A stretch of DNA of 62,943 nucleotides, counting the filler, from Cirrosporium novae-zelandiae (Eukaryota), in NCBI GenBank assembly GCA_026023565.1. It is 5 parts of 5 records of this genome, joined end to end, with 100 filler letters (N's around TTAATTAATTAA, not from the genome) between each part and the next. Parts side by side here need not be neighbours in the genome. Positions count along the whole stretch, not along the records: positions 21,258 to 39,468 come from JAPETS010000090.1; 4 more parts are not named here. One strand, 5' to 3'. Of the stretch, positions 6,858-49,899 are shown piece by piece (position 1 is the stretch's first letter; the number at the start of each line of letters is the position of its first letter). The notes under the pieces are model-generated. The model had not been told where the DNA came from, searched no databases, and worked only from the letters and a program-made list of their open reading frames with translations. The translations under genes and the position numbers were made by a program.

Positions 6858-8332
6858 ATTCGCTAGGGTCAGTGTGTAGGTCAGCATGGTAGTGGTTGTC
6901 TTAAAGGGATGGTTCATAAAGAGCGTCTTACCGCCTCGACGCTATACCTATCTAGGTAGTTCTGGGTTGAGTATCATGAACTCTTCCACCCTTGAGACGA
7001 GAACGCACTCCCACAATCATACCATTGGATACACCAACGTATACGGCACAACACAATGGATTAGACGGATAAAGAATATAGCTACACATGAAGATATTTG
7101 GCCAGTGGAATGGCAAGGGTGCCTTTGTACGGATGGTGGGTTGGATAGGACCCAGGAGTGCTCAGGTACTGATGCATTGTCAGGCTCTTGGAGCTCTCAG
7201 GTGGTGTCGGAGTGATGAAGCTGCTAGGGGCTTATTGTCAAATGCGCTGGACATTGGGTGGACCTAACGCAGGCCGAGACCGTGGAGAACATAGCGCTTT
7301 GAGCTCAAGTGGGCTTAGAATAAGGCCTATTGGAGGGGTGGTGGAGCGGAATTATCGTCAACAGCTGCCATAAAGGTCCACGGATATTTAGATGTAAAAA
7401 TGGAACAACCGTTTTTATCAGGACATGAATTTATAAGGAGATGACAAGAGATTTAGATAGAGGTTGCTAAATGAGAGAATGTGCTATTAAAGATGAGTGG
7501 GGGGAGGATGATTGGTGCGGTTAATCCAGGCTAATCACGGGAATCAGGAACATCACGGGACCTTACCGAAATAGGCGCCCTAGAGGGACCTAAGGATGTT
7601 TTTCTTCAAGAGACGGTCAACTAGATGGACCAAACACCAATCAGCTCAATGGAACTCGATGGACCCAACGGTCAGTTCATTGTCCTCGGTTTTCGGGTCC
7701 TCTCCCTCTCCCTTTCTTGGGATCTATCTTGAATTAAAGTTTTATGTCAGCCGCTCATCTCACTGTGGAAGGGAATCGAACACCTCCTGAAACATTTTGA
7801 CTAATAGCCTCCATGGTATCAAAATCGTGTCAAATTCCGCCGTTGTGACCAATTTTCCGTTGGGAATCATTTGACCTTTTCTAGTAAACAACCTCTCATG
7901 GACTCTGGAGGAATCCACCAAGTCCACAGAGTCCACAAAGTTTACCAAAGACCGCACAAGGCCATGGGATTGCTCTCGGGGTGACATGCTATATTTGTCC
8001 ATAATGATCCGGGGGAGCTAGTCCATGGTCACGGTAAGATGTATTTCCTCGCGATGACTTGTCTTTGACTATTTTGAGTTACCTATGTGGTGTTGTCTGT
8101 TCGTCTCGTCTCGGCCATTAGTGGGGCCTTGTAAAAAATACCAACTCAAGATTGCGTTCGGATGAAAAAACCAAAAGATCGTGATTGAGAGCTTGACCGT
8201 ATTTCCCTCTTTTAAACATGGCAATCCTCGTTTTTTCAAGGGGTCGTGCTACATTGCATTGGCGAATTTGTTACGAGCCGACAGGACAAACAAGAACGGT
8301 TGCTTGACGATACCTTGAAGAGTTGCACGGCG

Positions 8333-21257: not shown

Positions 21258-21542
21258 GGGTGTTTTTTATTGGGTTGGGGTTGAATTGAGGTGGTTGGTT
21301 GTGATAAGTTACTATAATTAGTGTTTATATGGCGCATAGATGGATGGATAAATAAATAAATAATAACAGCGAGGGTCATCTTCTTCTTCTTCTTCTTCTT
21401 CTTCTTCTTCTTCCTTGTGTCATGCAAATGTCTAACGTCTAACGTCTAACATCTAGTATTCAGTAACATCTAAAAATTCTAATAACGTCTATCATCCCAT
21501 CATCCCATTATCTTATCATCTTATCATTCACACCCACTAAAA

Positions 21543-22766
21543 TCACCAAATACCCCAATCTCCCCAGATGCCTAGGACCTCTCTTCCCTCTGCCTCTTCC
21601 TCCCCAACCCCACCATCATCCTCACCACCACCACCCCAAGAACCAAACCCCCTCTCAAACTCCTCATGCAGATTCTCCCACCCGTCCCTGACAGCCTGCA
21701 TGCCCCTTACCCGTTCCCGCTCCATCGCTTCCAGATCCCATTTCTCTTCTCCTGATTCTGATGGTGATGAGAATGAGGATGATGAGGGACGGAATCCTGA
21801 AACCCGGATAACCGCCTCCGGGGGGATGGTAAGGCGGTTTCGCTTGAAGACGTAGCGAGCTATGCTTGTTGCGAGGACGGGGGTGTGACTTTTGGTTTCT
21901 TTTTCGTCTTTGCTGTTATGACGCTTTTCTCTTCTACTTCCCTTGCCACATTTCATATTCCTCCAAGGCTGCAGCACAAACCTCCGCACATCTACCCCAT
22001 CCATAGTCCCCCGCAGCACAAAAAACGAAATGAAATACATCCATTTGGAATCCCAGGTTAGGACGCGCGTGTAGATGTCGTAAGGGATGAATAGGGGGAT
22101 TTCCTTTCGGAACATGCAGGTTATTCCGCCGAGGGCGGTGTAGATTTTTAGACCGGGTTTTGCTTTGGTGATGGTGTCGTTGGAGTGGGGGTAGGATTGG
22201 GATTGGAGGATTGCGGGGGGTGGTGAGATGGCGGTGGAAGAGTTGTTTGGTAGTGATGCCGATGGGAGTGGGGTGGTAGTTCCGGTGCTAGGCGTCGCCA
22301 TTCCCGCAGCCACAGACGCAGCACCCCCTACAATCTCCTTGAAATCATGTCCTAACGCCTTCGCAAAGAGGCGGGTGACGAGAGTCGTGCGCGCGATATC
22401 TAGGTCCGCGAAGTAGGTGCTATTGCTTTTATGAATGTTGTAGTCACCTTCCAAGAATGGGGTACGGCTGCATTGGAATACCGAGTAGCTGAATAGGTGC
22501 TTCGGTCCTAGTACTGGTTTGGAGTCGCGGTTGAATTTTGGGAGGAATGGGAGGAGGTAATATGTGTCTTGCGTGAGGATGGTGTTTAGGAAGCGAATGT
22601 GCCAGACTAGAGGCAGGGTTTTTAGGTTTAGTAATAGGGAGAGGGCGAGGATTGTTTTTGGGAGGGTTAGGGTGATGTATCTGTGTAGGAGGAGGATGAG
22701 TGGGAGGAGCGCTGCTAGGCGGAGGAGTGTCTGCGGGTGATTGAGTGGGTGCGTTATGTACGGCAT
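21543..22766 (-). CDS. Hotdog-fold thioesterase-like protein (THEM6/YBR096W-like)
   Basis: LLNLKTLPLVWHIRF, EGDYNIHKSNSTYFADLDIAR, GGITCMFRKEIP, TRVLTWDSKWMY and ARYVFKRNRLTIPPE motifs. Confidence 0.82.
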   Translation of the reverse strand: MPYITHPLNHPQTLLRLAALLPLILLLHRYITLTLPKTILALSLLLNLKTLPLVWHIRFLNTILTQDTYYLLPFLPKFNRDSKPVLGPKHLFSYSVFQCSRTPFLEGDYNIHKSNSTYFADLDIARTTLVTRLFAKALGHDFKEIVGGAASVAAGMATPSTGTTTPLPSASLPNNSSTAISPPPAILQSQSYPHSNDTITKAKPGLKIYTALGGITCMFRKEIPLFIPYDIYTRVLTWDSKWMYFISFFVLRGTMDGVDVRRFVLQPWRNMKCGKGSRREKRHNSKDEKETKSHTPVLATSIARYVFKRNRLTIPPEAVIRVSGFRPSSSSFSSPSESGEEKWDLEAMERERVRGMQAVRDGWENLHEEFERGFGSWGGGGEDDGGVGEEEAEGREVLGIWGDWGIW

Positions 22767-23394
22767 AGCTGTTGAGGTTGATAGTGAGGAGAGTTTCTAT
22801 TTTTGGAGTTGGTTTTTTGATGAATCTTTTCTTCTTTTTCTTTTTCTTAGTCCTTGCTTCGAGACCTACGAATTTGTGAGTTTGGAAATCTGTTGGACAT
22901 GTATATAAAGATATGTCCTTGTAGTCGCACAGCAGACTGTGGACGGATTGAAACAGGAATCAGAAGTTAAATGTGACAGGTGTCTCTCCCTGCCGAAATA
23001 GAAGCACAATTGAAGATATTAATCAATAAATAAATAATAAAGAAACTAGAGAGAATAAAAATATCAAAATTGTTGGGAAATAATAGTATGAGATTGAATT
23101 AGTTTAACCAAAGGTCCATTCAAAATGCTAAGAACTTCTCTCATGATCCACTTCGGACTAAATACGTAAAGCGACCTCACACGAAATGCCGAGGTATCTT
23201 TTTTATCCGGTCATGAGGTCGGAAATGGCAAAGTAATGAGAGAAAATATCTAGACAAAACATCAACAATTGATTTCTTGCTCTTTGCCTCTGATAATCTA
23301 CAGAAATATTGTGCGATTCGCCTAACCTTGAATCCAAAAAAACCCCCACCCATAATTTAAATATCCAAACCAACTTAATCCTATCTCAATGACA

Positions 23395-24696
23395 TTATGC
23401 ATCGCGTCGTTCATATGGATTCAACTCGTGCCATTCACCTGCTGCCTCAACTGGCGCTGTCTCTAGTCCTCTGTTTTCTGCACCTCTTACTGTACTCTCA
23501 TCACTTGACTCCCTTCCTTGGTAATTCTCATCATGTCCTTGTTCTAAATCTTGTGATTGATGTTTTTCCCCAACAACATATCCCGCCCCTCCTCCAATTC
23601 CCCTCCCAAATGCCCTTCTTCTGCTTCTTGGTCCCCATGCCCATCCTTCGCCCATGTTGACTGGTAAATGATACCATCTAAAACTCATCCATCCTAGCAA
23701 AATTCCTAATAGCGACCCTGAGAGTATATCAAATCCGTGATGCCGATAATCCGTAAACCGTGTAGAGCAGATATAAACGGCCGCAGCAAGAGGGATAAAT
23801 GGGAGGAGCAAAGTCCATATTGGAGGAGCCGCTGCATGGGTACGTAGAGAGGGATTCGGATTAGGCGTTGCCACAAATAAAGGAGATGTAAGGTACGGAA
23901 TTGTAGTGCCAGTTTTGGCAGCCAGAAAAAGCGAGAGATAAAGTAGACCAGCCCAAGAGACTGCAAATATAATTAGTACAAAGTCAATAAAACCAGAGGC
24001 GGTGAAGTTTACAGCTTGAATGTCCACTTGGAAAGCTCTGGAACCCATCACTCAAAATTGCATCATCCTTCTGTTGGCAAATCGTCCAACTAACCAGCCT
24101 GGTACCATTACCTTGATAACCTACGGCATGGTCTGCGGTATGATCTAGGGCAGGATTGCATCGGCTAAGCAAATCTGGCCTTGGTTTTCCAAACAAAACT
24201 TTGCTACTCTGAGTAATTAAGAATGCACTCGCACAGGCTAGAGCAAGGCCTAACCACCCAACATGCCATTCCCAAAACTTTCGACGAAGACTGTATTTTT
24301 GATGACGATGACGAAAACACCTGAGAGGTGTGGGAGGAATGAAGAGAAGACAGACAACCGGAATAATTATTGCTGGTACACCACCAGCAATAATTATCAA
24401 AAGTGAGAGTGGTACTCTTTCATGCTCGGTGTAGGGGAATGAGATGCTCGGGTCGGTAAGATCGAATGGTCGATGATAAGGCGTGACGTTGGACAGTGCA
24501 TAGGCAACCAGCAATACAGCGCTAAATAGTTTAAACAATCAGTTCACTGCCTGAAAAAAGGGACAGCAACTCACAAGACAATAATCCAATCGAAAACATA
24601 AGATGAAAGAAGAAGAGGCGATATACGATGGGGTGCTTTAGCCATCCTATTATATGTGCCAATAAGGTGATTGGTGCTAGTGAAACTACGTCTCAT
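23395..24696 (-). CDS. PAP2-family lipid phosphate phosphatase (DPP1/LPP1-like), multi-exon
   Basis: C1 KVLFGKPRPD, C2 SFPSGHSS and C3 STRFTDYRHHGFD motifs; first exon ...SSYVFDWIIVL from ATG 24696. Confidence 0.88.
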
Positions 24697-25117
24697 GGCT
24701 GCGAAGAAAAGAGAGAAAGGAAAAAGGTATAATATAGCAAAGAATCAAAGTGGGGGTGAAATTGAACTGATGGTTCTGCGAATGTAAAGGGTGAAGACTC
24801 AAGGACTTGGGGATACAAGACTAAAACGAGAAAGGGAAAAGCGGAAACAGGAGACTTCTCTGATCTTTAATTCATGAATACCTTACGTAGTCATTAAAGT
24901 AAGAGGTTTGACGAATAATACCAAGGCTACACATGTAGAAAGTAATAGGAAAAAAATAGCCAAGCCACAATTCCGAGTGATTAACGTTAGAGATGGTGTT
25001 TTGGGGATGGATTGACGAGCATAAGTTGACATGTTGTGGCTCAATGGGGCAACTGAACACATGAAGTTAATCCTCGCCAACAAGGAAGAGTCTAACAAGG
25101 CTGATGGAACTTCCAAG

Positions 25118-25212
25118 AAGCCAAGTTAAGCCAAGAAAAGGCCAAGAAAAGGCCAAGAGCGCCAGGAGAACGCCAGGAGAACGCCAGGAGAACGCCAGGA
25201 GAACGCCAGGCA
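25118..25212. repeat. Short tandem repeats (GCCAAGAAAAG / CGCCAGGAGAA units)
   Basis: Several GCCAAG-based units followed by about 4-5 copies of the 11-mer CGCCAGGAGAA. Confidence 0.8.
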
Positions 25213-26647
25213 ACAACAAAGTCCCCAAGACTGCAATAAGATTTCGGAATGATGTAGACTGCCGATCTCCAACAATAGAAGTCAATTCCGAAGTGCCGTG
25301 TGGCTTAGACCAGTAATTCAGTAACTCCCTCACATATCACTAACTTGTTCCCAGTCTCGAGCCAATCTTTTTTCTTCAGAATGTCACTGATTATTTGATC
25401 TGTTTAATTATTGCTTTCGTGTTTAAGCTAGATGTTTCTCCTGACGCCAGATTTTCTCCGAGATTCACTCCATTGGAACTAGAGTGTTTCTCGGAGATCT
25501 CGGGCTTCTCGGCTCGGGGATCTCGTGCTTAACAAACTTCGTCCGCTAATGTTCCGAAAATTCCGTGATCAATGCTTAGCCAGCAAGCCAACGAGCCAAC
25601 TCCACAGATGTTTTCTCGAAAGAAAGCTTGGATCTCTTCTGATATCGAACCCTGATGAGATGTTTATCCTCTAGTTATCGTTTGCCATAGCTACTTTGGC
25701 ACTAGTATTATCTCAAATTTCCAAGGCTCTAGAAGAGATGGAGAATAACAAGCACAGGCCACTAATATCTTGAAAACGGAAGAAAAGTAAGCATCCAAAA
25801 AAGCTTAGGGCCAGCTGAACAAAGGTACAAATTTTCCCGTAATGGCAGTATAAGCGGTCAGGGTCAGCGCAGATAGAAATAACGAGATTGGTTCACAATC
25901 AAGCGGCGAATTTATACTCATGGAGATAGTTCCTTGGGCAAATAACACCCGAAAGATGAGAACTGCTCGATAAATAACCAAGGTATGATACGAATGAAAT
26001 GAGTATGATAAAAAATGAAATGAGCACCATGAAACTGAACTGTTCTCTCAGATATGAAACCGCACACTAGTAGCAAACTCCTAGTGACAAGTTGCTGACC
26101 CGCAAGATCAAAAATTAGTCGATCGAGAAGCTTCTGCCATAGCATGATGGACTCTCTAGACTTTTGATTTGTACCACGAGCAAATCGGGCACTAAGACCT
26201 ATTGGTAGCAATCATTTCTCATCTTGACTAGATTAAATAGCGGGTCTAACCTCGGCCGACCAGACCGAGTCTCTCCGTATATAGACCGACCCGACCGAGG
26301 GCCTTAACCTAGTCCATTCCTTTGCGGAGGGTACAAATGATACCACCTGCGCTCACGTTAGAACCTCTAAGCCTCCTCTCAAAACCCCTATCCATTTCCT
26401 ATGCACGCAGAAAGACAGAACATATACGCCAATACTAGCAGCCCCCGGATTCGACCGATACATAGACAAATCATGGAACATGATCCGCAACGACATCAAT
26501 TTACCAATCAACCATCACCCGATACAAATCCACCCACGGGGAGTGGGTGACCCACCCCCCAAAACCAAACCAAAAACCCCACAGAAAAAAAAAACAAAGA
26601 AAAAAAGTCTGCAGAATAAAGTAACCACAAAACAGGGCATTACAAGC

Positions 26648-27295
26648 GTAGGAACAACATCCTCACATTTCTACCGGCTTATAACTAACAAAACCATGCT
26701 TTCATAAGAAAAAAGAACTAACACAAACTGATACGAGCAAAAGAGTGTATAAATCTATACTCTTTTGGGGTCGGGAAGAGAAGATCTCAATTAATATCTT
26801 GTTAGTCACTTTATGATGGTGGATATCTATTTATGCGAGGCATTCACGTCTTCATATTCGCATTTATTTCCCTACATAAACCGAGGGAAAGGAGGATGAA
26901 GGGGAAGGGGGAGGAGGAAAGGGGATACAGTTAGTAGGCAACCTTGAATACTTTGGACTAAAAAACCGAAATAAAATAGGGTAGTACTGTACAAATGTAG
27001 GGAATAACATCCTCTCACATTTCTACTAAGTTATAACTAATATAAATCCATGTTTTCATGAGAAAGAGAACTAACGCCAACTGATACAAACAAGGAGCAG
27101 TGTATAAGTCTATATGCTCTTTTTGGAATCATGAAGAGAAAGAAAGAAACCTTAGATAATTTTAAATCTTTGTTAGTTACACCTACCTAGGTAGGTATTT
27201 TATGATGATATCCTATCAATCCATCCAATCCAATCCATGCAAGGCAATTTACATTTATCCTTCCTAGATACCTATATACCTATATGAAACCTAAG
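26648..27295. repeat. Diverged direct duplication of ~240 bp
   Basis: GTAGGAACAACATCCTCACATTTCTAC...TTATAACTAA...GAACTAAC...CTGATAC...GTGTATAA occurs at ~26648 and again at ~26997. Confidence 0.75.
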
Positions 27296-29090
27296 GAATG
27301 GAAAGATGGAAGAAGGGGGAAGGGGGAAGGGGGGTGCAGCTGGCAGCAGGCAATAAACACCTTAGCCTTCTATACATACATTCAAATACAGATACAGATA
27401 CAAGAAACCCTAATAGATAATTACTTAGGTACCCAGGTACGTACTTCTCATAACCCACCCATAACCCGACCCGACCTAACCCGATAGTCACACATACACA
27501 CGCCGCATGTATGTATATGTATGCATATATGCATAGAATAGCCATAGCCATCCACGTAACCAACCCCCCACTTCACGCCCTGTAAACACCACCACCTCTA
27601 GAATCCCTACCGCGTCCCTGTTACTCAACAGCGCCCTTGTCTACCCATTCATGCATCTACAAAGCACTGCCACCATCACCTACCTATCTACCTACTCTGC
27701 CTACTCCAGAAATTAATTAATTAAATTCCTTCAAGGGGTTTAAAAGAGAAAAAGAAAAAGATGAGGGAAACAAGGGTAGGGGAATAAGGGGTAAGAATGG
27801 GGTGTGGGGGGATGGGAATGGTTAGAAAGTAATTGGAAAGGGTAATTAGAGTGTGGGTGAGTGAGTGAGTGAGTGAGTGAGGGCTGAGGATTGGGGGTTG
27901 ATGGATTGATGATGGATGGTGAGTAACCACCTAACCCTTCCTTTTATCTTTTATGCTACTACTACTACTACTAGTGAATTTCGGGTTATATGTTTAAAAG
28001 GTAGCATTAATTTATAAGTTTCTGTTTTTTTTTGGTGAAAGACTCTTTTTTGTATATACTGTATAGTAAGTACATGTGCATGTAAAAAATTGAGGGGCGC
28101 GGGTTAACTCTAGGGTAGGTATCTAGGTAATCAGGGCTTTTGGTGGTTGGTCTTGTCCCTTCTTGTTCCCCTTCTTAATTACCTAAGTAGTTTACCCAAT
28201 ACTTTTGAGAAGACCTTTCTTTCTTTCAGCCCTCATCTCGTTTCCAACAACTTCTCCCCCATCAGCTAGGCTCTCCGGATCCGACACCCTAGACAAGCAG
28301 ACAGGCAGGCAGGACAGGACGGTCCTTCATGGCTTTTTATGGTCTTTTGTATTTTGCCTACCTGGTACAAGATGTGTCCTACGGTCTTCACATGTTTACT
28401 ATAGATAGGACCCAGACTAGATAGACCTCGTTATAAAAAAGAAAGAAGAAGAAAAGAAAAAAAAGGGGGGAGGGGGAGGGTCGTAGTTGTAGCTGTGGTA
28501 AGGTAAGATAAGGCAAGGGTGTAATGTGTGTGGGCTAGGAGAGACTGTATTGATTGATATTGATAGAAGTGATGATTGGGATTGGGGATTGGTAATAGTA
28601 GATGTAGATGCAGATGCGGTTGATGAGTAATAGAATTACGGGAATAGGAATAGGAATAGGAATAGGAATAGGAATACTATCATATTGTTATTATTAGGAC
28701 TTTGGAGGTAAGGAGTGCGTAGGTGAGGATTTTGTATAGATATGGATACAAACTATGCATGTAAAACGACGGTGATGCTATGGAAGAGTAGTAGTAGCAG
28801 TGAGTAGAGTTGTTTTGCGAGGGGGGAAGATTAGAAGGGTTGAGCTATATAAATATATAGATAGATAGGGAAACGTGGCCATTCTAATCGAAGGGGACAG
28901 GGAGAGTTTTGGGGCTTTAATTTTCTTTCTTTCTATGGAATACTCGGCAGATTTCTTTGGGAAATAGAAATGGGGATAGGGACTTTCTGACTGTTCCTTT
29001 GTTACCTAGCCATTCGCCTCTTAATTAACTCTACTTACAATGCTATGGTTTTAAAGTTCCAAAGTACTCTTAACCCTTCCCCCCCCCGCT

Positions 29091-30893
29091 TTAGTATTTG
29101 CATTGTCGAAGTTGTTCTACAATCCTCTCTTGCACTTCAAGCGATGCTTCATCGTCGCTCATGTCTCCAACATTAAAACAGAGTTGAACAACTTGGAGAA
29201 ACGTATCACCCATGTGAAAAGCTACATCTTGCATCAATCCCAGACTCCCATCATCATCTATTTTCATCAGCTCTTCAAGATTTGTCGGATTGATTTTAGG
29301 TAGTGTAGGCTGAGAAGCAAAAGATTTTTGGTCGAGAAGAAGGGATGCATATCGCATTAAGATGTTATCTAACCTGTCCCATAGAGCTAGTTCCAGGAAT
29401 ATGCATCCTAGACCGTACAAGTCGAATGCTTTTCTAAACAATTCTCTCGTCTGCCCGCGGGCTTGCGGGTGACGATATATATCTATTTTGGCACTCGAAT
29501 AAGGATCTTCCGTCATCTCTTCCGCGCCATCTGCTCTCGTGTATTCGTAGCCTATTAGAAATGGTTGTTTTGAAGGGAAGGTTGTCCAATCATCCTCTTT
29601 GGGGATTACGAAAAGGACATTTTCTGATCGAATGCCTTTATGGAGCCAGCCAGAGGTATGAAGTTGAAGAAGGGTTTCGGCGAGGGAGAGCGCAATGTGA
29701 ACCCTTTTGTCGAGGGAAGGTTTTCCCGACAGCATTAACGCGTTCAGGAGATTTTTGACAGCTATGGAATTGATGCTGTTATCAACTGGCCCTGATAAAG
29801 ATGAATATAGCGGAGTAACAGAACGAGAGAACGGCGGAAGCTCAAAGACAATTGCATAGCGTTCCAACCTATCATGTACAATATACCCCATGCAAGGCAG
29901 CGAATGGTAGGAAATAGCTGGTGCGTTGGATAGCAGCAGGACGAGTCCTGATACACGCGACTCTAAAAGGCGTTTATGATCTCTTGGAACAACCTTCCAT
30001 TCCACCAGAACAAGTTTCGATTTGTACTGTGCAATTTCTCGTCCCCTGCAGTCGGATGAAGGTCTTTCTTGAACCAGTAATGAATATCGCATCTTTATAA
30101 CCTTCCGGTTGACACCCTGCATCTGAGTATTTGGACCTGACTTCTTCTCATCGGACCTTCGATCCACCCCGAGTAGAAGTCTAATCTGTTTAAGACTTGC
30201 GGCAGAGGTCACGGTATCTGCATCGTGGACGGAATTGCCATCGAGCAGCTGCTTCACAGTTTCGAGCTGAGAGTTATCGGTACTGTGAGAAATAATTTCG
30301 CGTAGTAGAACTGTAAGGGCGGACTTGACAAAATCCTGATCAACGGAGTCAAGGAGGCCTTCGAGAGAGGTATTTATTTCCGCCAGACCATTGAGAATTG
30401 TCGCCGCCTGCGATTTTCCCAATGTCGCCCATTGTAATCTCTTCAGAGGGCCGTTGCTGGCCTGGATGATGCGGGCTGATTGGAGATAGACGTGGGGTTT
30501 AAGCTTGGAAAGAAGCTTCCGAAGACTGGAGCCATCCCCGCTAGCCGGCGGTTCCTTTCCACCCTTTCCACTCTCCACCCCGACATTAAGATTGTACTTT
30601 TCCTTGACTCTCCGTGAAGATGTCAAGAGAGCTTCCTGCTGTTGCAAAAGATCTCTAATGAGGCTCCAATTAAGTCGAGAATCCGGATACGTCTCATGGT
30701 CTAGTTTTGCCTTTCTAGCCCACTCCATCAAGCGATACTCTTCCACTTGCAACTTGGCTCGAATATTGTCCGCATCTGGCCCAAGATGTTGAGCTATTTG
30801 GGCAAATTCGTATGCCTGTATGCATACTCGAAACGATTGAACAGCCACTGCTATGACCCCCCCGATGGCGGACGTGGCATCTATTTCAATCAT
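29091..30893 (-). CDS. HeLo (prion-inhibition) domain + protein kinase-like (pseudokinase) protein
   Basis: N-terminal hydrophobic helix IGGVIAVAVQSFRVCIQAY, HeLo motifs KLQVEEYRLMEWA and RLQWATLGK...LAEINTSLEGLL. Kinase fold has degenerate motifs VLVEWK, WLHKGIRSENVLF, IGYEY, DIYRHP and DLYGLGCIFLELALW. Single exon. Confidence 0.85.
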   Translation of the reverse strand: MIEIDATSAIGGVIAVAVQSFRVCIQAYEFAQIAQHLGPDADNIRAKLQVEEYRLMEWARKAKLDHETYPDSRLNWSLIRDLLQQQEALLTSSRRVKEKYNLNVGVESGKGGKEPPASGDGSSLRKLLSKLKPHVYLQSARIIQASNGPLKRLQWATLGKSQAATILNGLAEINTSLEGLLDSVDQDFVKSALTVLLREIISHSTDNSQLETVKQLLDGNSVHDADTVTSAASLKQIRLLLGVDRRSDEKKSGPNTQMQGVNRKVIKMRYSLLVQERPSSDCRGREIAQYKSKLVLVEWKVVPRDHKRLLESRVSGLVLLLSNAPAISYHSLPCMGYIVHDRLERYAIVFELPPFSRSVTPLYSSLSGPVDNSINSIAVKNLLNALMLSGKPSLDKRVHIALSLAETLLQLHTSGWLHKGIRSENVLFVIPKEDDWTTFPSKQPFLIGYEYTRADGAEEMTEDPYSSAKIDIYRHPQARGQTRELFRKAFDLYGLGCIFLELALWDRLDNILMRYASLLLDQKSFASQPTLPKINPTNLEELMKIDDDGSLGLMQDVAFHMGDTFLQVVQLCFNVGDMSDDEASLEVQERIVEQLRQCKY

Positions 30894-31600
30894 CTTGGCT
30901 CTTGATCAATCACGAAAGCTGCTTTGTCTAGCATGGAAACCCGACAACAAGATAATGGACATCTCCAACAGCTTGTCGTGCGAAAGGCGGATTTATCCAT
31001 AATTTGGTGATCGATGAGGCTGCAGTAGTGCCTTCAGGAGAATGTTTGATTATTCGCTGGCACAAATGGGAGAAAAAGTGACTTACAAATCCCATTTCTT
31101 ATTTTACAATTATTTCAACCTTTCTATTATAATCAGTGATATCATAATAGTCTACGATCAATCTATTATTCTTTTTGATTTTTCTTAATTAATTATACTT
31201 GTGTTGGTTGTGTTTATATGTGGATTAATACATTGTAACATCGTTCAATGCAAGTTGGCGAGCAGGAACCAGTTTGTGAGTCTCGCTTTTTCTGTCACAT
31301 GCATGGCTGGTCATTATCGAGGCTGCATATGATGATCCTTGGCTGGCTTGCATCCTTTATACGATAGGTTAAGGCAGATCAAGGCGCCCTTCTGGCATAA
31401 GGCTATGTCTATCTGAAGCTGATAAGGCTATGAGAGATTTGGTTATAAGATGTTATTGAGTCCATCGAGTACTCTGGATTTACCTCATCCTGGGCTTCAC
31501 TTTTTAGGTCCATCGAATATTGTTCTCGAATCGATCTACTCCAACTCTTACGGTTCCGCTCTTGGACTGACCTTCTCGAGCCTTTACCAGATATATATCA

Positions 31601-34600
31601 ATGTTTCGGCTTTTACCGTTACTCTCGTGGTTCACAGGGAGCCGTCCGGTACAAAACCGGGGCTTCATACCTCAAGATGTAATTGACGAGGAACTGGATA
31701 AATACTGCAAAATTCAACACGATGAGGACGGCCGACCACTCCCCATTTCCGAAGTTGACTTTCAGCATATAACCGAATTATTGAGGAACCTTGAGGCTTA
31801 TGCTCATATATCAGGATGGAGTCGGAGACCACGAACTTATACAGTCCTCCGAAACATCAGGTGCCTTGATTTATTTCCATATTTCATTAATCACAATCTA
31901 TCAGATTACTCGTTGCCATATACGACAGAAACCCTTCCCCCAGAAGTGGCAGATGAGGCTAAGAGAGAAATGTTTTTACGAGTGCAAGAGGCAGTTTTGA
32001 CTCCTACCAAAGAGCTTGAAGCAGGCCCGGAAGGACGTCATGTACGCTTTCTAGGAAGTGCTGACGATTTCTTTCATGTCAGGCGGCCACTAGGTGAAGG
32101 GGCTTTCAGGTATGATTAATACACTTTAGCATCTTCATTCTCATTAATTTGACAAAATTATATTCTAACTGTTATTTTTTTTAGCTATGTTGAAGAGGTC
32201 TCAAGTAAGCTCAGCCTTAAGCTGTATGCTCGGAAGAGCTACAGGCGTGGTCGGGACACCTTACGAAATAGACGTCGACATCAAGCATTCGAAGAGGAAT
32301 TTTTAATGTTGAGGAGATTCTCCCACCACCATCGTCACCTAGTCAAGTTTATCGGCTCTTACACAGACAAAAGTTACATTGCATTTTTAATGCTACCCGT
32401 AGCTGATGGGAACCTGATGGAATTTCTCATGCGCCCTGACGATCCCCGGGATGATCGACTCTCCAGGCTGAGGAGCTTTTATGGCTGTATCTCAAATGCC
32501 TTAAACTACCTACATACGGTAGCCCTTATCAGACATAGGGACCTTAAGCCGGAGAATATCCTAATCAAAGACAACAAAATCTATCTCACAGATTTTGGAG
32601 CCGCCCTTGATTGGTCGGCCAGTGGGCATAGTGTGACTCAGGATCCATTCTCGGCACGAACCGAGAGGTATATGGCCCCCGAGGTTGCCAATAATCAAAT
32701 AAAGTCCTCCGCAACAGACATGTGGTGTTTGGGGGTAGTATTCCTTGAAATGACTACTGTTTTGCGAGGACGAACAATTGAAGAGATGAGGAGATATCTG
32801 GATAACAAATTTGTATTCTCAGATCTTCCTACCGCTCATAAATGGTTGGGAATTCTCAGGAAAAGTAAGATAGGATCAGCCACCGACAATGAACCGTTGA
32901 TCTGGATCAAGGATCTTATCCAGGAAGCGCCAGAAAAACGCCCCAACGCAAATTCACTCTGGATGCAGATTATGGTGTCTTCTTATTCCAAGCAGTTCTG
33001 TGGTGCGTGCTGTCATGATGACTATCGTGAAAACATGGCAAGCCAAGATACAACAATATATTCCCATACCGAAGTCGCTACATTCAAAAGGGATGTAGAT
33101 GACTTTGAGACGATTCGGTCATCCAACCTTGTTCCAGGAAATGGCATTATTCAACCTGGACGAAAACAAACAATCCTTGATTGGATGCGTGATAGCATCC
33201 AGCCACATCCAGAAGCATCTCGCACCCCTTCACCTTCACCAATCGTAAGAGACTTTAGATCTAGCCCGTCCGGCGACCACTGGCCACCTACTACAACATC
33301 TCGTTCTTACATGATGCCTGGTTCCTTTCCCGAGTTTTCCGATGACGAAGGTGACCATACCGATCATTACAATGCTGACCCAGTCTTTGCGTATGAGGAA
33401 GAACCTGAGGAAGAAGACGGGGAAGAAGAAGCTGGGGGTCTAGGCTATGAAGTGTATGAGGATAGTTCGGAATCAGAACTTACAGCTCGTCCTGATCCTG
33501 CAACCTCGTTTCAAAGCCTACCAAGGACAGACTTGACCGGATCCGTAAATCCTGCGGAGGATCCAATCCAGAGATCGAATCCATATCGAACTACCGTTAC
33601 CTCTGAAGATACACAAAATGCACAAGAGATACTTGAAAGACTGAATATGATTGACGGCGATGATTCCGATGACGCAGCCACAGAAAAACCTATTTCAAGC
33701 CATCTTGCCTACACTCAGGAGGTCCCTGCTGCAACACTATATCAACCCAACCAATTTATAATTGTTAGACCTCCAAGCCAAAATATATCCAGCGCTAGTC
33801 GTAACGAAGTAGCAAGCATGCAATTCCCTAGGCCACCCCAAATGCATGCTCTTACCAGTACACACATACCACCTCATCCATATGTGGAATCGCATGGTGT
33901 AGTACAATCCGAAAAACTGCCGGAACTGCAATCATCCCTAGGTGAGCCCGAACAGTGGGAAAATCCTTGGATCGACCAAGTTGTGGGGCAAGAGCAAGTC
34001 ATAGCCCCACCGCCTATAAGGTTCCCTCAACCATCGATAGCCGAATTTATCCCGGAACAAGTACAGCCAAATCAGTTCCTTGAGATACCGGGCATAAGAT
34101 ATAACCAACAGGCAGAAACAAACGAACCGGCCATAACCAACGGCAGCCAGGTTACCGAGACATCCCAGATAGCACATAATGACGATCAATCCCGCAATGC
34201 AGGCAGCCAAGTATCCAACAGAGTGGCAGGAGATGTATCCAAAGGAAAAGGGACCAAGCAAGTTGAAATCCGACGTGTCAAGTTTAGCGACGGCGTCAAC
34301 AATGAGCAAAAAGCCAGTGGTGCCCAGAATAACGATCCCATGACAAAAGAACCTAAGCGTTCTATTCTCTCCAATACGGGCAAACAAAGTATCAATGATA
34401 GCTTGGCCCACGGCATGTCCAAGCAAGAGGGAAAATCGGGAGTCAACCAGTACAACCATGCTAATACAAAGTATAAGATCCCTATCACCCAAGAGCGCAA
34501 GGAGGTTAATGAAAGCTGGGCATCCAAGGTCGATGAGAGCGAAACCAAGAAAGCTTCAGATGAAAGGCCATACGTTCCTTCTTCAAATCGTCTAACCGAG

Positions 34601-35782
34601 GCCAATCTAAAGGCTAGTAGCTCTAAAATATCGGCTCACGAGCTCGCAGAGACTAATAAAAGCCGAGTATCCAAAGTCGATAAGAATGAAACTAAGAAAG
34701 CTTCAGATACAAAACCAGAAGTTCCTTCTTCTTCAAGTCGTCTTACCGAGGCTAATCTAAAGGTCAGCGGCCCTAAAACGCCGACCAAAATGACAGCCAG
34801 TGTTTATATGAAGAACGTTTTCGAGGCTTCCTCCACCATTGCAACGTCTGTAATGTCCGAGAACACCGCCAAGCTGTTCAAGCAAAAAGGAGCACTGCTG
34901 AAATGGTTTGACCAGGATTATCATTACCTGGAACACTACTGCAAGGCCGGTAAAGCTGCAGCTGTACAATATCTACTAGAAATTGGCTGCAATCCAGGAA
35001 CAGAAAAGAAACGCCGGCCAAAACCATTGATCTATGCTATAAAAGGAGGTACCAGACGACATACCAAATGTGTAAGACAGCTCTTGGAACATGGGGCAAA
35101 TGTCAACATCTCTTTATCAGGGAAAACTGCTCTTCACTACGCTATCGAATTAAAAAATTTCAAAGGGTTCAATAAGTTGCTTCTGAACCTCTTGAACCAT
35201 AACGCAAATCCTAATATACCAGATAATAACGGAGACTACCCTCTTCTTAAAGTTCTCTATGGGTCCTATGAACCTCTTCAAGAACACGAACACGATATGC
35301 TAGCTTTGCTCTTACAGTCAAAATTCGAAACCAATGTCAATATCTCTCCACGTGGAACATTAAATATGCCATTGCACCTTGCAATTCGACGGACCGATCC
35401 ACTCGCTGTTGGAATGTTGTTGGCAAAAGGAGCAAAAGTCAATGAGCCTAATGCATCTGGAACAAAGCCACTTGCATTGGCGGCTCTTGCCTGGAAGGCG
35501 CCAGTCACGGCCCAAAAGATTGAAATCCTCGAACTTCTTCTCGAATCTAAAGCAAATGTGCATGATTTGTCCGGTCCATCGAAACGCACCCCCTTGCACC
35601 TAGCAGTTTTATGGGGCTCCCTTCAGGCTGTTGAGCTTCTATTGCACCATGGAGCGAACCCTAATATGGAAGATAACGATGGAAACGACCCTATTAATCT
35701 AGCGGAAAGCCATCACTTTGATGATATAACAAGGGTCCTTTTAAGGCATAGGGATGTTTTACGAGCCAAGTCTTCTCAATGA
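31601..35782 (+). CDS. Ser/Thr protein kinase with long low-complexity linker and C-terminal ankyrin repeats
   Basis: Intron 32110-32184 joins LGEGAFS/YV (Gly loop) to YARK, HRDLKPEN, TDFG, YMAPE and DMWCLG. Ankyrin repeats include GKTALHYAI, NMPLHLAI and RTPLHLAV...LLLHHGANPN. Confidence 0.9.
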
Positions 35783-36414
35783 GTTGTTGATTTTCTCTTG
35801 CTTAAGGTTTCTTCTATGATGACTATTCATTTCATCGTTCGTATGCTGCCTTTAGGTTATAGTGGACATTAAGGTTTCTTCTATAAGGCTTGAATCTAGG
35901 TGTATAACTACATGGTGTTAAGGCAACGTGTAAACCAGGCAGCGTGGTTAAGGATGACTATTCCAAGGAACCAAGGTAACTCTATATAGTAATGATAATT
36001 CACTGTTTTATGTCTTACATGCTGCTTAAAAGCTATGGCGGACAATACTCTACATAGTAATATTAATGGAATAATAATAGTAAAGAAATAAAAATCACAT
36101 GTAAGAACGCAAGAGGTGATGATAGCTTAAGTGTGTGCCCGTAAGTATAACCTGAATTGTTCCATCACATCACCCTCTAACTATATTATCAAAAAAAAAC
36201 CTCGGGTAGACTTCAAACCCCCCTTTCCTCTAACCCTCCCCTCTTCAACCCTCTCCAACCATAACCATCGCCCCTATTACAGATGCTGCACCGTGTTTGC
36301 TATATATATATATATCAACTTCATTAGAACATTAGAATGAAAAATAATAACAATCTATTCATCTTACAAAGACACGAAACTATTACAATCAAGTATGTAC
36401 TCGTCTTTGTATAT

Positions 36415-36451
<37 letters not shown>

Positions 36452-38104
36452 GAATATATATATTTCAAACTCTTGAACTAGTTACTTTAATTCTTAATCA
36501 CTCACCCCCCCTCCCTCAACCACTCGATCAAATAAAACACCCCCCCCCCTTACCCTAAAGCAAAAAGAGGAGAAAAAAAGAAAAAGAAAGAAAGAATCGA
36601 CCAATTAATAATCTACCATGATGTATAAAAATCACATCTATCAAATCCATTTTTTTTTTCTTAGGATTTTCTTTTTCATCGGGTATTATTAACTTTAACT
36701 TTATGAAAACTATGTATAGAACTAAGGGGGGAGGATCTTCCTTCCTTCTCCTTCCCCCTTTTTTTTTTTTGGTCAAGTTTATAAACTTATGTACATATAT
36801 ATATCTTCATAATCAATTACTCAACCCCATTAAATATAACCCCGATAACCCCCCCCCTCCCCCCTATGCCCGTGCTAGTAGTGCCAATAGGTAACGACAG
36901 TAAGTAAACTCGTATGGAATATTATATATATATATATTGTATTTCTTTGTTGTTATTTTTTTAGGGTCGGGGGGAGGGGGGTGGTATTGAAGTGTAGAAG
37001 TGTGGAAGTGCGTAGAAACAGAGTGAAAAAGAGATGGAAAGGAGAGGGATGGTTAACTAATTACCTAACTAACCCTAAGTAACATCCGATAATGATAATT
37101 GTGATGGTGATAGTGATGATAATGATGATGGCCAATGCCTTTGAGACTGACTGACTGACTGCCCAGGCACCATATGTTATACATATACCTAATTTGACTG
37201 GGTTTGACTAATTTGCAATTAGACTAAAGCAGTATTTCTTACAAACCCACCCACACACAACCTTGTGTATATATAACTTGTATAACTAATTACCAATATT
37301 TTACCTATCCATCTATCCCACCACCGCGCCCAAAAAGAGAGAGAGAGAAAAAAAAAAAAGAAAATTTGGTATTGAAATCCGAGAGGTTAGATCTATTTCT
37401 ATTTCTATTTCTCTCTTTCTTTCTTTCTCTCCTCTCTCATTTCTAGCTCTGGTAAGGCTGTCCCTTGACTTTAACTCGTCATGCTACCATTTGGTACTAT
37501 ACATTTGTTTGTGGAAGAAAGAGGATTTTATTTTATTTTTTTATCTACCCTTTTGGTTTATTAGGTTCGGGGATTAGCTCTGGGGTTTTCTTTGATTGAG
37601 ATGGGAGGGATGGGAGTGTTGTCAGAATGGATGATGATAAGAAATAGATAGGAATAAGATGTAGTGTGAGGGACGTTCTGTTTTTTTGTGTGTGTGTGTG
37701 TGTGTGTTTGGTTCCTAGGGTATTGCTCATCGAAATAACTAGCCAATAACCCAACAAGCAACGTCTATTCCCCCTCTAGTATTATAAAGAGATGGAGATG
37801 GAGAAGGGAGGTGGTGGGGAGCTAATAAATTTGGGGATTTATCTTTGATTGAGATGGTTTGGGGTGGGAGGGATAGAGGGAAATAGGGTTTAGTGTGTGT
37901 GGAGGACTTTTGTGTTTGGTTCCTGGTTCCTGGTTTCTGGTGAATTAAGAATTAAGTACCTAGGTAATTAACTAACTGATCATTCGTTCATTTTCATCCA
38001 ACATCCAAACCATTCATATTCATCCATTTATTCATCCGCCTCCCCCTCTCTTGAACCCCCCCTCTCACCCTCTCACCCCTCTTGGCCCTTCAAACCCATC
38101 AAAA

Positions 38105-38747
38105 TCAAACCGCCTCCAAAGCCAACAAAACCCTAGTACAACTATCCGGAAACACCAAATCCGTATCCTCCCCCACCGGATCAACCAGATAAAACAACTG
38201 CGGCGTAGACGCATGCCACCAATCGCAAACGAGCCAGCCGCCATATGGTTCGGGTGGATTTAGATATTTCGTGCTGTCATCAGTGGTAGAGGAGAGGGTC
38301 ATACCCGCGGTTCCGGGACTGAATGTTAGGATTGAGACGGGTTGCCATGCTATTTATTTTGTTAGTTAGGGGAATATATAAACATGGAATAAACATACAA
38401 GTATAGAACGTCTGAATCTCCAAATTCATTCCCCATTGGTACTCCCCAATCTCAAACTGCCAATAAGTCTCATTAATCAAAGACCCCGCGACACCATGGT
38501 CAGACGACAAAGTGGCATCGCTTTCGCCGGCGCCGGTGTGGTAGCTGGAGACGTAGAGATTATCGTGCGGGGAGGTGTCGCAGTATGTGTTTGCGGTGCA
38601 GGAGGTCAGGAGGGTGGTTTTTAGGTAGGAGAGGGATGTGCTGTTGGTGGTGGTGGTGCGGGGGTTGACGGGGAGGGCGGAGGTGGAGGTGAGGAGGAGG
38701 GTTAGGATGGTGAGGAGGGAGGTGGTGGGTGGGGATGGGATATGCAT
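38105..38747 (-). CDS. Small secreted protein of unknown function (2 exons)
   Basis: Signal peptide MHIPSPPTTSLLTILTLLLTSTSA; YVSSYHTGAGESDATL motif. Intron GTATGT...CTAAC...TAG (~38350-38398) joins to ...GGWLVCDWWHASTPQLFY...CTRVLLALEAV*. Confidence 0.78.
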
Positions 38748-39437
38748 GGTCGATGGGTTTTGGTTGGGTGTTGGGTGTTTGTTTGTTTGTTTGTCCGTTT
38801 GTCCGTTTATCCGCCTGTCTGTCTTTCTTTCAGCGTAAAGAATATTTATTATTATTCTTAACGACAAGAACAAAACATGAACATGATGGGGATGTCAACA
38901 ATACCTACCTACCTAGCTATATATATACTTCCAACCATGCACTATGCACCGTGCCCCTTTGCCTCAAACTTACACATACTCTACACACATGTAGCTACAC
39001 GAACCGGAACCCACAAAATACGAACAAACAGGTTCCCATCACCTCACTATGATTCCCCCATAGCTACTTAGGTAGCTAGCTCCCCCAAGTCCGATGATCC
39101 GCACGTTTACCAGCCCCCCCCCCGGGCCCCCCGCCCCAACTTTATTCGTTTACCTTGATTTTGAAGAAGCTGTACATCTCCAAGAGCGAATCAAATCCCT
39201 CCAGCAAGCAAGGTAAAAAAAAATACACATACACAATCCTTCAGAGGTTTGTTATATTTTTTTTTTCATTCCATTCCTTTCTTCCCCAAGTTTTACTTTA
39301 TTTTATTTTATTTTCTCATAGCTATTGAATTGAATCATTGTTGGGCTCCTACGGGAGCCTCGGCAAAAAATGGGCTATGGCCAATGGCCAAGAGCCAAGA
39401 AGTCTAGGCTAGAACTAATTAATTAGTAGATATATCG

Positions 39438-39468
<31 letters not shown>

Positions 39469-48335: not shown

Positions 48336-48894
48336 GGCCTATTAAATGAGATAGGGATTCAGTATTCGCCAAGTACAAGGATAAGGATGCTAAAGACCTT
48401 GAAGTTTACCGTACAAAACTCACTAAGCAACCAAAATCCGCCACCTCTCTTATCCAACGCGTTATTTTATCAACTCCGAGTCACTGGGTATTGTTAGGAT
48501 CGCAACGCACATGGGGTTACAGAAGACCTTTGCTTTGGTGTAAGCAATTTATCAATATAATATTGAATAGAAGTTAGTTATCCTATAACCTGCCTAGAGC
48601 GTGGAAAAATTTTCACACACCGATTCACAATATCTTATTTTATCTTCACGTGATATCATCTAATCTTTTATCTAATCCAAGCAAATTAAAAATATATAAT
48701 CCTTATACAAAATAACAAATATTCTCATGGTAAGAATCATTGCCTCAAGGAATCACTTTACATTAATTACAACGCAGAATCCACAGTTTTTTTTCTTACG
48801 AGGCATAACAAGAGTATAGAAGGTGAACTAATGAAATTTCCCTACTAAATATCTCCCGCTCACATACGCCTTAGCAGCTGTCTACGGTGCAGCT

Positions 48895-49899
48895 ATGAGC
48901 CGAAACGTCCCCAACGATAATTTCACTAAAGAAGTCCACCGTCTCCGAGTCGAATATATGGAATTGCGGGAGAAAACCCATTTAGTTCCACCAGCTGGCC
49001 GATCCGTAATCGAACAAAGCATAGATATGATTGAAAACGTGATGTACCACACATATTGGTACGACGACGACGGCAGGCCTCAAGGTCAATGCATTCGACT
49101 GGCTGATCTTCCAGATACTCTCTCTGGTGATATCCTTCGTTTACGCCGGGACTTGCCATTATTGAATGGTGACTACGAGATTGTTGGCAACTATATCCGC
49201 CAGCTTGAAAATACACCAAAACGACCAGAGCCGTACGAAAACGATTCAGAAGATCTTACTACAATTCTTGCTTCGCTTCCCTCGATAAAAGTCGATCCGG
49301 ATAAACATTTCGTTAAGAAAGGGAAATATGAAAGCGAGATTCGGAACCTGCTTAAATGTCAAGGAGGGTCCTGTCCAGGAAAACCAATTTCGCCTTCCAT
49401 TATCCAACTTCTTGGAAAATCATCTGATGGTAAACTGGTATTTGAGAAATTCAAGTCTCGACATATTGTGGCACTTTTCCATTCTCTCGATATCTACAAA
49501 AGCTGGATCTTACAATTGATTGCCGGTCTTAAATGCCTCCATTTGCTTGGAATTGTTCATCGCGATTTGCGCCTTGACAACTTGCTCTTTTCTCCCGATG
49601 GCAGGCGCTTACTTATCTGTGATCTTGAGGGGCGGTGGGGAAATCGCTTAGCACCAGAGATTTCCCGTCAACCTGTCTTGAACGCTGGTTGGACGGAAAA
49701 GTCAGATATCTATGACCTCGGCCATGTGATAAAAGGTATAGTATATGGAAACGCCCCAATCACAAATCTGGTGGAATGGCCTGTTCCCCCTCCCCTTGAT
49801 GCTATCGTGAAAGCATGCGTTCGCGATTCCCCTCAGGAGCGCCCAAGCTTGGAAGAATTGGAGATTATGGTTGGCGGAATTAAAATGGCCGACTCTTAG
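48895..49899 (+). CDS. Atypical fungal protein kinase, single exon
   Basis: HFVKK...SEIRNLL, IVHRDLRLDNLLF, ICDLE in place of DFG, LAPE, KSDIYDLG and ERPSL; no recognisable Gly-rich loop. Confidence 0.8.
   Translation: MSRNVPNDNFTKEVHRLRVEYMELREKTHLVPPAGRSVIEQSIDMIENVMYHTYWYDDDGRPQGQCIRLADLPDTLSGDILRLRRDLPLLNGDYEIVGNYIRQLENTPKRPEPYENDSEDLTTILASLPSIKVDPDKHFVKKGKYESEIRNLLKCQGGSCPGKPISPSIIQLLGKSSDGKLVFEKFKSRHIVALFHSLDIYKSWILQLIAGLKCLHLLGIVHRDLRLDNLLFSPDGRRLLICDLEGRWGNRLAPEISRQPVLNAGWTEKSDIYDLGHVIKGIVYGNAPITNLVEWPVPPPLDAIVKACVRDSPQERPSLEELEIMVGGIKMADS

Follow-up and report, generated by a model that had tools for sequence, protein, structure and literature searches.

Two adjacent genes of the fungus Cirrosporium novae-zelandiae (class Xylobotryomycetes) raise the question of whether fungi, in which the known ways to arm regulated cell death are NLR-driven amyloid templating of HeLo or HELL domains and proteolytic activation of gasdermins, may also arm an executioner by phosphorylation. 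The genes lie at positions 29,091 to 35,782 of a 62,943-nucleotide stretch of this genome (assembly GCA_026023565.1; hereafter the window), which consists of five parts joined by filler letters, and fall within the part taken from record JAPETS010000090.1 (positions 21,258 to 39,468). Gene A encodes a HeLo domain fused to a kinase fold that lacks catalytic residues, and gene B encodes a putatively active kinase with ankyrin repeats at its C-terminus. An earlier note, made from this DNA alone, had proposed that the two constitute a death module resembling RIPK and MLKL, in which the kinase senses a trigger and phosphorylates its neighbor. Here we describe the pair as a conserved two-gene module of filamentous ascomycetes, found side by side across fungal classes and yielding matching partner trees, and weigh how its products might act on each other.

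Gene A has the architecture of an MLKL-like protein

The divergent arrangement described in the earlier note, with start codons about 700 bp apart, was recovered with an exact spacing of 707 bp, and the interval 29091-35782 comprises both frames including their stop codons, a compact pair of two genes in ~6.7 kb. Gene A is a single uninterrupted open frame of the minus strand (29091-30905, with its ATG at 30893), and its features, together with the region common to both genes, are as follows.

29091..30893, minus strand: gene A coding sequence, 600 amino acids plus stop, HeLo-pseudokinase; identical to database protein P0001
30261..30860, minus strand: HeLo domain, residues 12-211, with a hydrophobic N-terminal helix; Pfam PF14479, E 7.4e-26, and HET-s profile match
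30102..30260, minus strand: helical connector, residues 212-264, at the position of the MLKL brace; model helices 207-216 and 225-241
29094..30101, minus strand: pseudokinase domain, residues 265-600; VIA-align Z ~20, MLKL profile matches, weak Pfam DUF7580
29634..29642, minus strand: HKG in place of HRD, residues 418-420, catalytic Asp missing; from column counts
29544..29552, minus strand: GYE in place of DFG, residues 448-450; from column counts
29511..29513, minus strand: Thr461, candidate phospho-acceptor in the activation-loop equivalent; T31 S12 of 43
30894..31600, no strand: intergenic region common to both genes, 707 bp between start codons; probably a bidirectional promoter

The assignment of the N-terminus to the HeLo family held both in the Pfam search and with a profile of the gene A family (A1, 43 members), which matched the solved N-terminal domain of HET-s/HET-S (2wvo) with an E-value of 5.2e-17. 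In the AlphaFold2 model of the protein (predicted local distance difference test, pLDDT, 80; predicted template modeling score, pTM, 0.84), residues 261-600 adopt a protein-kinase fold, and the two modeled helices that precede it suggest a connector resembling the MLKL brace. VIA-align superimposed 255 residues of the kinase fold on BRAF (Z 20.8, root-mean-square deviation, rmsd, 3.1) and gave Z ~20 also to MerTK, MLK1, the JAK1 and TYK2 pseudokinases, IRAK4 and CTR1, and the best Foldseek matches were RIPK1, IRAK4 and BRAF, starting from an E-value of 4.9e-7 for RIPK1. The Pfam match to DUF7580 after the HeLo domain was below threshold, and the name DUF7580 was not found in the open-access and bioRxiv literature.

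The loss of catalytic motifs reported in the earlier note was also recovered, with LHKGIRSEN standing for HRDLKPEN, IGYEYTR for DFG, and the Gly-rich loop absent, and it extends to the whole family. Among the 43 members, the column of the HRD aspartate contains no Asp at all (G30 S6 A5 N1 E1), the DFG columns read G40 D3, Y32 F11 and E33, and no Gly-rich loop (GxGxxG) was found in the alignment. On the other hand, the beta3 Lys is retained (K39 R4 of 43), and H418, K419, R453, H475 and D491 are invariant. Because the catalytic residues are missing family-wide while these positions are invariant, the domain is an old, well-conserved pseudokinase and not a decaying kinase. Position 461, located between GYE and a conserved YRHP, is Ser or Thr in 43/43 members.

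A PDB search with the single sequence of gene A returned, for the kinase part, GCN2 alone (E 0.6), and profiles were required. With a profile restricted to the pseudokinase (A4, built from the window sequence and 19 metagenome relatives), MLKL chains made up 11 of the 13 best distinct sequences, with E-values from 8.3e-7 to 1.1e-5, in line with the proposed resemblance to MLKL; with the C-terminal half of the full-length profile A1, IRAK4 (3e-7) and MLKL (3.7e-7) were tied. KSR1/2 and BRAF are also among the solved relatives of this domain. The HMMER alignment places G-Y-E-Y-A-R of the family on G-F-E-L of MLKL and HKxIRSxN on HGKIRSSN of the human protein, and aligns position 461 with a Thr of the activation loop of mouse MLKL, loop alignments being uncertain. 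This Thr is presumably a RIPK3 target site, with the same uncertainty of the loop alignment. By these profile comparisons, the dead kinase appears closest to the MLKL pseudokinase among solved structures and has the G-aromatic-E motif in common with it. Gene A thus combines a HeLo head, a kinase fold and lost catalytic residues, which together define the architecture of an MLKL-like protein.

Gene B encodes a kinase-ankyrin protein

Gene B lies on the plus strand and is interrupted by one short intron, with the following features.

31601..32109, plus strand: exon 1, residues 1-169 and two bases of codon 170; ATG at 31601
32110..32184, plus strand: intron of 75 nt, GT..AG, inside the Gly-loop codons
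32185..35782, plus strand: exon 2, residues 170-1368 plus stop
31658..32005, plus strand: conserved helical N-terminal domain, residues 20-135; pLDDT >90
32063..33010, plus strand: putatively active protein kinase domain, residues 155-445, split by the intron; Pfam Pkinase, E 2.1e-32
33011..34897, plus strand: linker, residues 446-1074, rich in Ser, Glu, Pro and Thr; 16-22% identity among orthologues
34898..35779, plus strand: ankyrin-repeat domain, residues 1075-1368; Pfam Ank_2, E 8.5e-31, and related families

Removal of the intron reads GEGAF|S across the junction, and the spliced product of 1368 amino acids equals database record P0123, a metagenome-assembled protein of C. novae-zelandiae. 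With this splicing, all the motifs listed in the earlier note (GEGAFS, YARK, HRDLKPEN, DFG and APE) are present, as are the C-terminal ankyrin repeats, and the check it had suggested with hidden Markov models (HMMs) returned the HeLo, Pkinase and ankyrin families on the two proteins. D289, N294, D306, F307, P335 and E336 are kept in 28/28 gene B orthologues (alignment A2), and K187 in 26/26 of the rows covering that column, a pattern that marks gene B as an active-type Ser/Thr kinase. The best solved relatives of its kinase domain are SGK1 (8.6e-16), ASK1/MAP3K5, PDK1 and DAPK2. In the column of K291 (window 32546-32548) of the same alignment, Sordariomycete and Leotiomycete orthologues carry HRDL[T/S]xRN in place of HRDLKPEN (T6 S2 of 28), a variant of the catalytic loop that we take to recall the motif of tyrosine kinases.

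The N-terminal domain has no Pfam family and no Foldseek match at E <= 0.001. A wide VIA list for residues ~73-135 consists nearly entirely of SAM domains (best Z 5.7, rmsd 1.9, 61 residues), and this part may tentatively be called SAM-like, the scores being low. Of 1.84 billion cluster representatives searched, 561 are related to the domain at E <= 0.001. In a domain scan of 54 of the best 150 of these, chosen by length with the longest left out, Pkinase follows directly in 49/54, and the unit formed by both is combined with ankyrin (8), TPR (5), HSP70 (2), WD40 (1), YTH (1) or RRM (1) partners. The swapping of this unit among WD40, TPR and ankyrin arrays would parallel the signaling heads of fungal immune-type proteins. 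In P0341, P0401 and P0200, a unit of the gene B type is annotated as a C-terminal extension of HSP70, which points to an unusual fusion or else to gene models that were merged.

The ~630 residues in the middle of gene B show no Pfam family and no NOD domain, and their composition and divergence indicate a disordered linker; the idea that gene B is a disguised NLR was rejected, as this stretch is of low complexity and carries no Pfam family of any kind. Within the linker, at window positions 34487-34792, there are two diverged copies of ~50 residues (around SKVD..ETKKASD...RLTEANLK), identical at 21/52 ungapped positions and missed by Tandem Repeats Finder. Conservation of the ankyrin domain is about that of the kinase domain (orthologues share on average 43% and 49% pairwise identity, respectively), and no tandem DNA repeats were detected in it by Tandem Repeats Finder. 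Since the domain is both conserved and without tandem repeats, a conserved binding partner is favored over a role as a fast-evolving sensor of non-self.

The two genes are neighbors across fungal classes

Linkage in named genomes was assessed from NCBI locus-tag numbers, which show adjacency and not orientation, and from contig sizes; homologue listings were clustered at 90% identity, and the count covers the assemblies with both partners tagged among the matches listed. Consecutive locus tags were found in 15/15 such assemblies, belonging to 14 species: Xanthocarpia lactea, Xylographa trunciseda, Xylographa soralifera, Gyalolechia fulgens, cf. Caloplaca sp. 2, Seirophora lacunosa (two assemblies), Seirophora villosa, Caloplaca aetnensis, Teloschistes flavicans, Pyrenula sp. 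1, Flavoplaca sp. TL-2023a, Flavoplaca navasiana, Xanthoria parietina and Gallowayella weberi. This set consists of Lecanoromycetes of two subclasses and one Eurotiomycete, Pyrenula. Outside it, both partner proteins of Triangularia setosa (Sordariomycetes, Sordariales) come from a contig of 24367 bases, the partners of 10 further database pairs come from contigs of equal size, and a single gene model of Diplodia intermedia (Dothideomycetes), 1404 residues long, contains Pkinase, HeLo and DUF7580, and could be a genuine fusion or a product of annotation that joined two genes in tandem. Adjacency was seen in at least five fungal classes.

Metagenome contigs were scanned with profile A1, and 51 loci were selected via the peptide HT[SA]GWLHK, with partners sought by custom HMMs and Pfam on the flanking frames. 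Twenty-six of the 51 were informative, having at least 2.5 kb of upstream DNA or a visible partner; L032 and L034 are duplicates, and L024 resembles L026 as L048 resembles L049. A protein-kinase gene is the immediate neighbor in 17/26, and the informative loci are distributed as follows.

Next gene a kinase, divergent, 13 loci: L008, L010, L016, L018, L025, L029, L032, L034, L037, L041, L043, L048, L049
Next gene a kinase, tandem, 3 loci: L003, L024, L026
Next gene a kinase, convergent, 1 locus: L023
Fragment of the gene B N-terminal domain at the contig edge, 1 locus: L013
Kinase near and not adjacent, 3 loci: L009 (sugar transporter between), L031 (PfkB between), L038 (4.5 kb off)
No clear partner, 5 loci: L021 (tyrosinase upstream), L027 (kinase-like fragments), L033 (AT-rich upstream, GC content 0.32), L035, L050

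With the named assemblies and these loci together, the linkage on which the earlier note had made its proposal depend is found in other genomes. Ankyrin repeats follow the kinase in 10/13 divergent and 3/4 tandem or convergent loci (in L024, the ankyrin part alone is visible in the downstream gene), and the gaps of the divergent pairs range from 169 to ~1300 bp. The partners in L023, L025, L026, L029, L032, L037, L041, L043, L048 and L049 were missed by tblastn with gene B at E 1e-5 and appeared only as frames with Pkinase plus Ank; they include a deep sister group of diverged kinases. The view that many relatives are unpaired, taken from the same tblastn search (partners in 7 loci), was dropped, as Pfam shows diverged kinase-ankyrin neighbors in most of them. 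Elsewhere in the examined DNA kinase-ankyrin genes are scarce: L038 has an additional one, and the entire 63-kb window has a single one.

Several of these loci depart from the common layout. L036 (34-1674) carries, on one strand, ankyrin repeats (34-756) and a piece of HeLo-family pseudokinase (1117-1674), and the interval between the two is free of HeLo; this locus may represent a fusion of ankyrin repeats to a pseudokinase, or a module that was rearranged. In L038 (21-5477), two kinase-ankyrin genes adjoin (21-1508, plus strand; 1577-5477, minus strand) ~4.5 kb upstream of the pseudokinase gene, and the partner gene may have been duplicated locally. In L023 (2528-5833 and 8421-12270), the HeLo-pseudokinase gene is flanked by a divergent upstream TPR gene (TPR_10, TPR-S) and a convergent downstream kinase-Sel1-ankyrin gene. 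The partner kinase-ankyrin proteins of one deep subgroup (L025, 497-3265; L026, 12530-16633) end in a ZZ zinc finger, which gene B of the window lacks. In L033, the 6 kb upstream of the family member (3000-9100) are AT-rich (GC content 0.32) and have no frame of at least 130 residues; this DNA looks degraded in the manner of repeat-induced point mutation. In L027 (6897-7722), the DNA directly upstream of the HeLo-pseudokinase gene holds, in divergent orientation, only weak kinase-like pieces (E 5e-6 to 5e-4) whose frame is broken and which do not match Pfam; they may be a decayed partner gene.

The two partners were inherited together

The co-evolution of the partners, another check suggested in the earlier note, was examined by comparing a tree of pseudokinase domains with a tree of partner kinase domains for 36 pairs, 19 from the database and 17 from the metagenome loci; the set includes the three loci with a kinase near and not adjacent, and omits L041, in which both pieces are short. 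The two trees have 16/33 splits in common, compared with at most 3 in any of 2000 label shuffles (mean 0.22), and their patristic distances correlate with r 0.73. The deepest split, separating 26 from 10 rows, is starred in both trees; because it is present in both, the pair must predate it and its two genes have since been inherited jointly. As for the head-to-head arrangement, 13 of the 17 adjacent loci are divergent. These results establish a conserved two-gene module of filamentous ascomycetes.

Neither an NLR nor an amyloid motif accompanies the pair

The earlier note had also supposed that the system operates with no NLR or amyloid step, which fits the surroundings of the locus and the two proteins themselves. 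The other large frames of the window encode a histidine kinase, a CTLH protein, an MFS transporter, a RanBP1-domain protein, a PAP2 protein, a DUF7907 protein, a dynamin, an Est1-like protein and a second, partial kinase, and none of the other 21 large frames contains an NLR (NACHT, NB-ARC), HET or other immune-type gene. The partial kinase frame (48835-49899; Pkinase E 4.5e-9, profile positions 96-142 only) probably represents a single exon of some other kinase gene, unrelated to the pair. No amyloid or RHIM-type motif was found in the gene A or gene B protein, the RHIM-type tetrad [IV]Q[IVLC]G having been sought by a crude pattern test, and since the kinase fold of gene A reaches the last residue, there is no space for a C-terminal prion-forming motif. 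The module consists of gene A and gene B alone.

How the two products may act on each other

By analogy with RIPK3 and MLKL, and with fungal clusters that encode an executioner next to its activator (PMC12881547), the gene B kinase would switch on the MLKL-like executioner encoded by gene A, in a necroptosis-like system free of NLR and amyloid, a reading to which we give about an even chance. In such a system, the membrane-attacking HeLo head of gene A would be restrained by its MLKL-type pseudokinase, and gene B would be the dedicated upstream kinase, with ankyrin repeats that bind the input and an N-terminal domain that aids input or assembly. Upon a trigger, gene B would phosphorylate the activation-loop equivalent of the pseudokinase, the candidate site being Ser/Thr 461, and the freed HeLo domain would oligomerize within membranes and so kill or injure the cell. 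From the same analogies we infer physical contact between the products, phosphorylation and its activating direction, the toxicity of HeLo, and what the trigger would be. A further proposal is that this switch from a kinase to an MLKL-like executioner is ancient in filamentous ascomycetes, its partners having stayed adjacent and co-diversified since before the classes of Pezizomycotina split; we consider this possible, and rather less than probable.

Several observations weigh against the activation of gene A by gene B as described. The E-values of MLKL with profile A4 are modest, and a MAPK ranks first (2.2e-7). No RIPK appears among the best 60 of 1717 solved-structure matches to the gene B kinase, which is therefore not of the RIPK/TKL type, and the RIPK likeness that the earlier note saw in gene B did not survive this comparison. 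The ankyrin domain, conserved and free of tandem DNA repeats, differs from the hypervariable sensor repeats of many fungal NLRs and makes the sensing of a trigger by gene B a weak part of the proposal. An adjacent kinase is missing from 9/26 informative metagenome loci, and selection by a peptide means that these loci sample part of the gene A family. Shared descent of neighbors would by itself yield congruent trees, so that the congruence demonstrates long co-residence and not interaction. Finally, plant MLKLs can act without cell death, and a HeLo domain need not imply killing (10.1101/681015, in the part available).

The linkage and co-inheritance data fit equally well a control of the opposite sign, in which gene B keeps the HeLo-pseudokinase phosphorylated or bound, and thereby inactive, and loss, inhibition or sequestration of the kinase frees the executioner, for example when a pathogen molecule is caught by the ankyrin repeats, as in a guarded or toxin-antitoxin-like pair. 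Tight divergent pairing, with 169-830 bp between the genes, would favor stoichiometric co-expression, as in toxin-antidote pairs, and the conserved ankyrin domain would suit the binding of a conserved self partner. However, the only worked-out analogue is an activating phosphorylation, that of MLKL by RIPK3 (PMC12881547), and the HeLo-pseudokinase genes that stand without an adjacent kinase in L021, L033, L035 and L050 would be risky to keep if the kinase were the antidote, and we regard this restraint as unlikely. Similarly unlikely, in our judgment, is a signaling pair that does not kill, in which the pseudokinase would be an allosteric activator or scaffold of gene B, as KSR is for RAF and STRAD for LKB1, the HeLo domain would serve membrane targeting, and the output would be the phosphorylation of other targets. 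It would account for the presence of KSR1/2 and BRAF among the solved relatives of the pseudokinase, for the retained beta3 Lys and for the many invariant residues of surface type, and the immune function of plant MLKLs is described as separable from cell death (10.1101/681015, in the part available); against it, a HeLo domain with a hydrophobic N-terminal helix is a membrane-disrupting executioner in HET-S and HELLP (PMC12881547), and the locus, whose neighbors are housekeeping genes, suggests no other substrate.

Allorecognition of the het type, in which the partners would be polymorphic and mismatched alleles would trigger HeLo death after fusion of unlike strains, draws on the classic place that HeLo proteins, and loci made of two tightly linked genes, have in fungal incompatibility (PMC12881547 and PMC10197012, both in the parts available), and on the diversification of the module into deep subgroups. 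Conservation across classes and of the ankyrin domain is, on the contrary, unlike that of hypervariable het determinants, which makes this origin of the trigger quite improbable; as it addresses the trigger only, it would be compatible with activation of gene A by gene B. The two genes could also be mere neighbors with a promoter region and inheritance in common, whose products do not act on each other, given that plain synteny can yield both congruence and adjacency, and that the named cases belong mostly to one family, Teloschistaceae. We hold this to be very improbable, since adjacency has been kept across the classes and through the deep split of both families, kinase-ankyrin genes are rare elsewhere in the examined DNA, and one Diplodia gene model joins both partners. 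Moreover, divergent, tandem and convergent orientations all occur, so that shared use of a promoter cannot account for the adjacency.

Comparison with known systems

Gene A resembles MLKL in having a helical-bundle or HeLo head, a connector, and a pseudokinase that lacks the catalytic Asp and carries G-aromatic-E for DFG, and the pair resembles RIPK3/MLKL in that a separate, putatively active Ser/Thr kinase is the candidate activator and a conserved Ser/Thr is found in the activation-loop equivalent of gene A. In contrast to the animal system, the sequence of gene B does not place it among the RIPKs, and it lacks the RHIM tetrad; moreover, the fungal genes are physically linked, and the head of gene A is by Pfam of the HeLo (HET-S) type and not the animal four-helix bundle (4HB). 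A published survey found fungi to be without RIPK homologues (PMC9573974, in the part available). The order of domains in gene B, a kinase followed by C-terminal ankyrin repeats, is that of RIPK4 and ANKK1 (RIPK5) (PMC9573974, in the part available), a likeness of architecture and not of homology. Unlike these, gene B has an additional helical domain at its N-terminus and the long linker, and no RIPK is among the best 60 solved relatives of its kinase. RIPK4 and ANKK1 are not known to be partners of MLKL.

The plant MLKLs (AtMLKL1-3 and Pm13) likewise consist of a HeLo domain and a pseudokinase without phosphotransfer residues and have an immune role (10.1101/681015 and PMC10951266, both in the parts available). 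They differ from gene A, which ends with the pseudokinase, in bearing a Ser-rich C-terminal region, and no genetically linked activating kinase is described for them in the available part of 10.1101/681015.

Among fungal systems, the HET-S/NWD2 and HELLP/PNT1 clusters also encode a HeLo-type executioner beside its presumed activator (PMC12881547, in the part available), whereas the gene A/B pair is without NLR, NOD domain and prion-forming or PP/RHIM motif, and its pseudokinase module and kinase neighbor imply that phosphorylation, and not amyloid templating, would be in control. In the gasdermin/protease clusters, a pore-forming executioner is found beside its activating enzyme, which is often fused to ANK, TPR or WD40 repeats (PMC12881547, in the part available), just as the N-terminal-domain-plus-kinase unit of gene B occurs with ANK, TPR or WD40; here, however, the enzyme is a kinase and not a protease, and the executioner carries a HeLo domain and not a gasdermin. 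The pair would thus extend the known fungal clusters of executioner and activator, with phosphorylation as the link between the two.

In one sentence, a review of 2025 mentions that some fungal HELL domains occur on kinase or pseudokinase proteins, and in the part available it gives no partner kinase, linkage or family analysis (PMC12881547). A linked partner kinase is not mentioned in the available parts of PMC12881547, PMC10197012, PMC9815663 and PMC8778642, and no paper on a kinase-ankyrin gene beside a fungal HeLo-pseudokinase gene was found among open-access papers and bioRxiv, supplements aside. What is new here is the MLKL likeness, the linkage in named genomes and metagenomes, and the matching partner trees.

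Significance

The same review urges a broader study of HeLo/4HB proteins and of the extent to which necroptosis is conserved (PMC12881547), an open question that a linked candidate activator kinase makes approachable in tractable fungi, since Sordariales such as Triangularia setosa carry orthologous pairs. If gene B activates gene A as proposed, fungi would have a third way of arming a pore-forming executioner, beside amyloid templating and proteolysis, in the form of a simple phosphorylation-gated, membrane-disrupting switch. Necroptosis-type signaling controlled by phosphorylation would then be older than animals, or would have been invented twice, and the pair offers a dated point of comparison for deciding if the signaling logic from kinase to MLKL in animal necroptosis was inherited from a common ancestor or arose by convergence.

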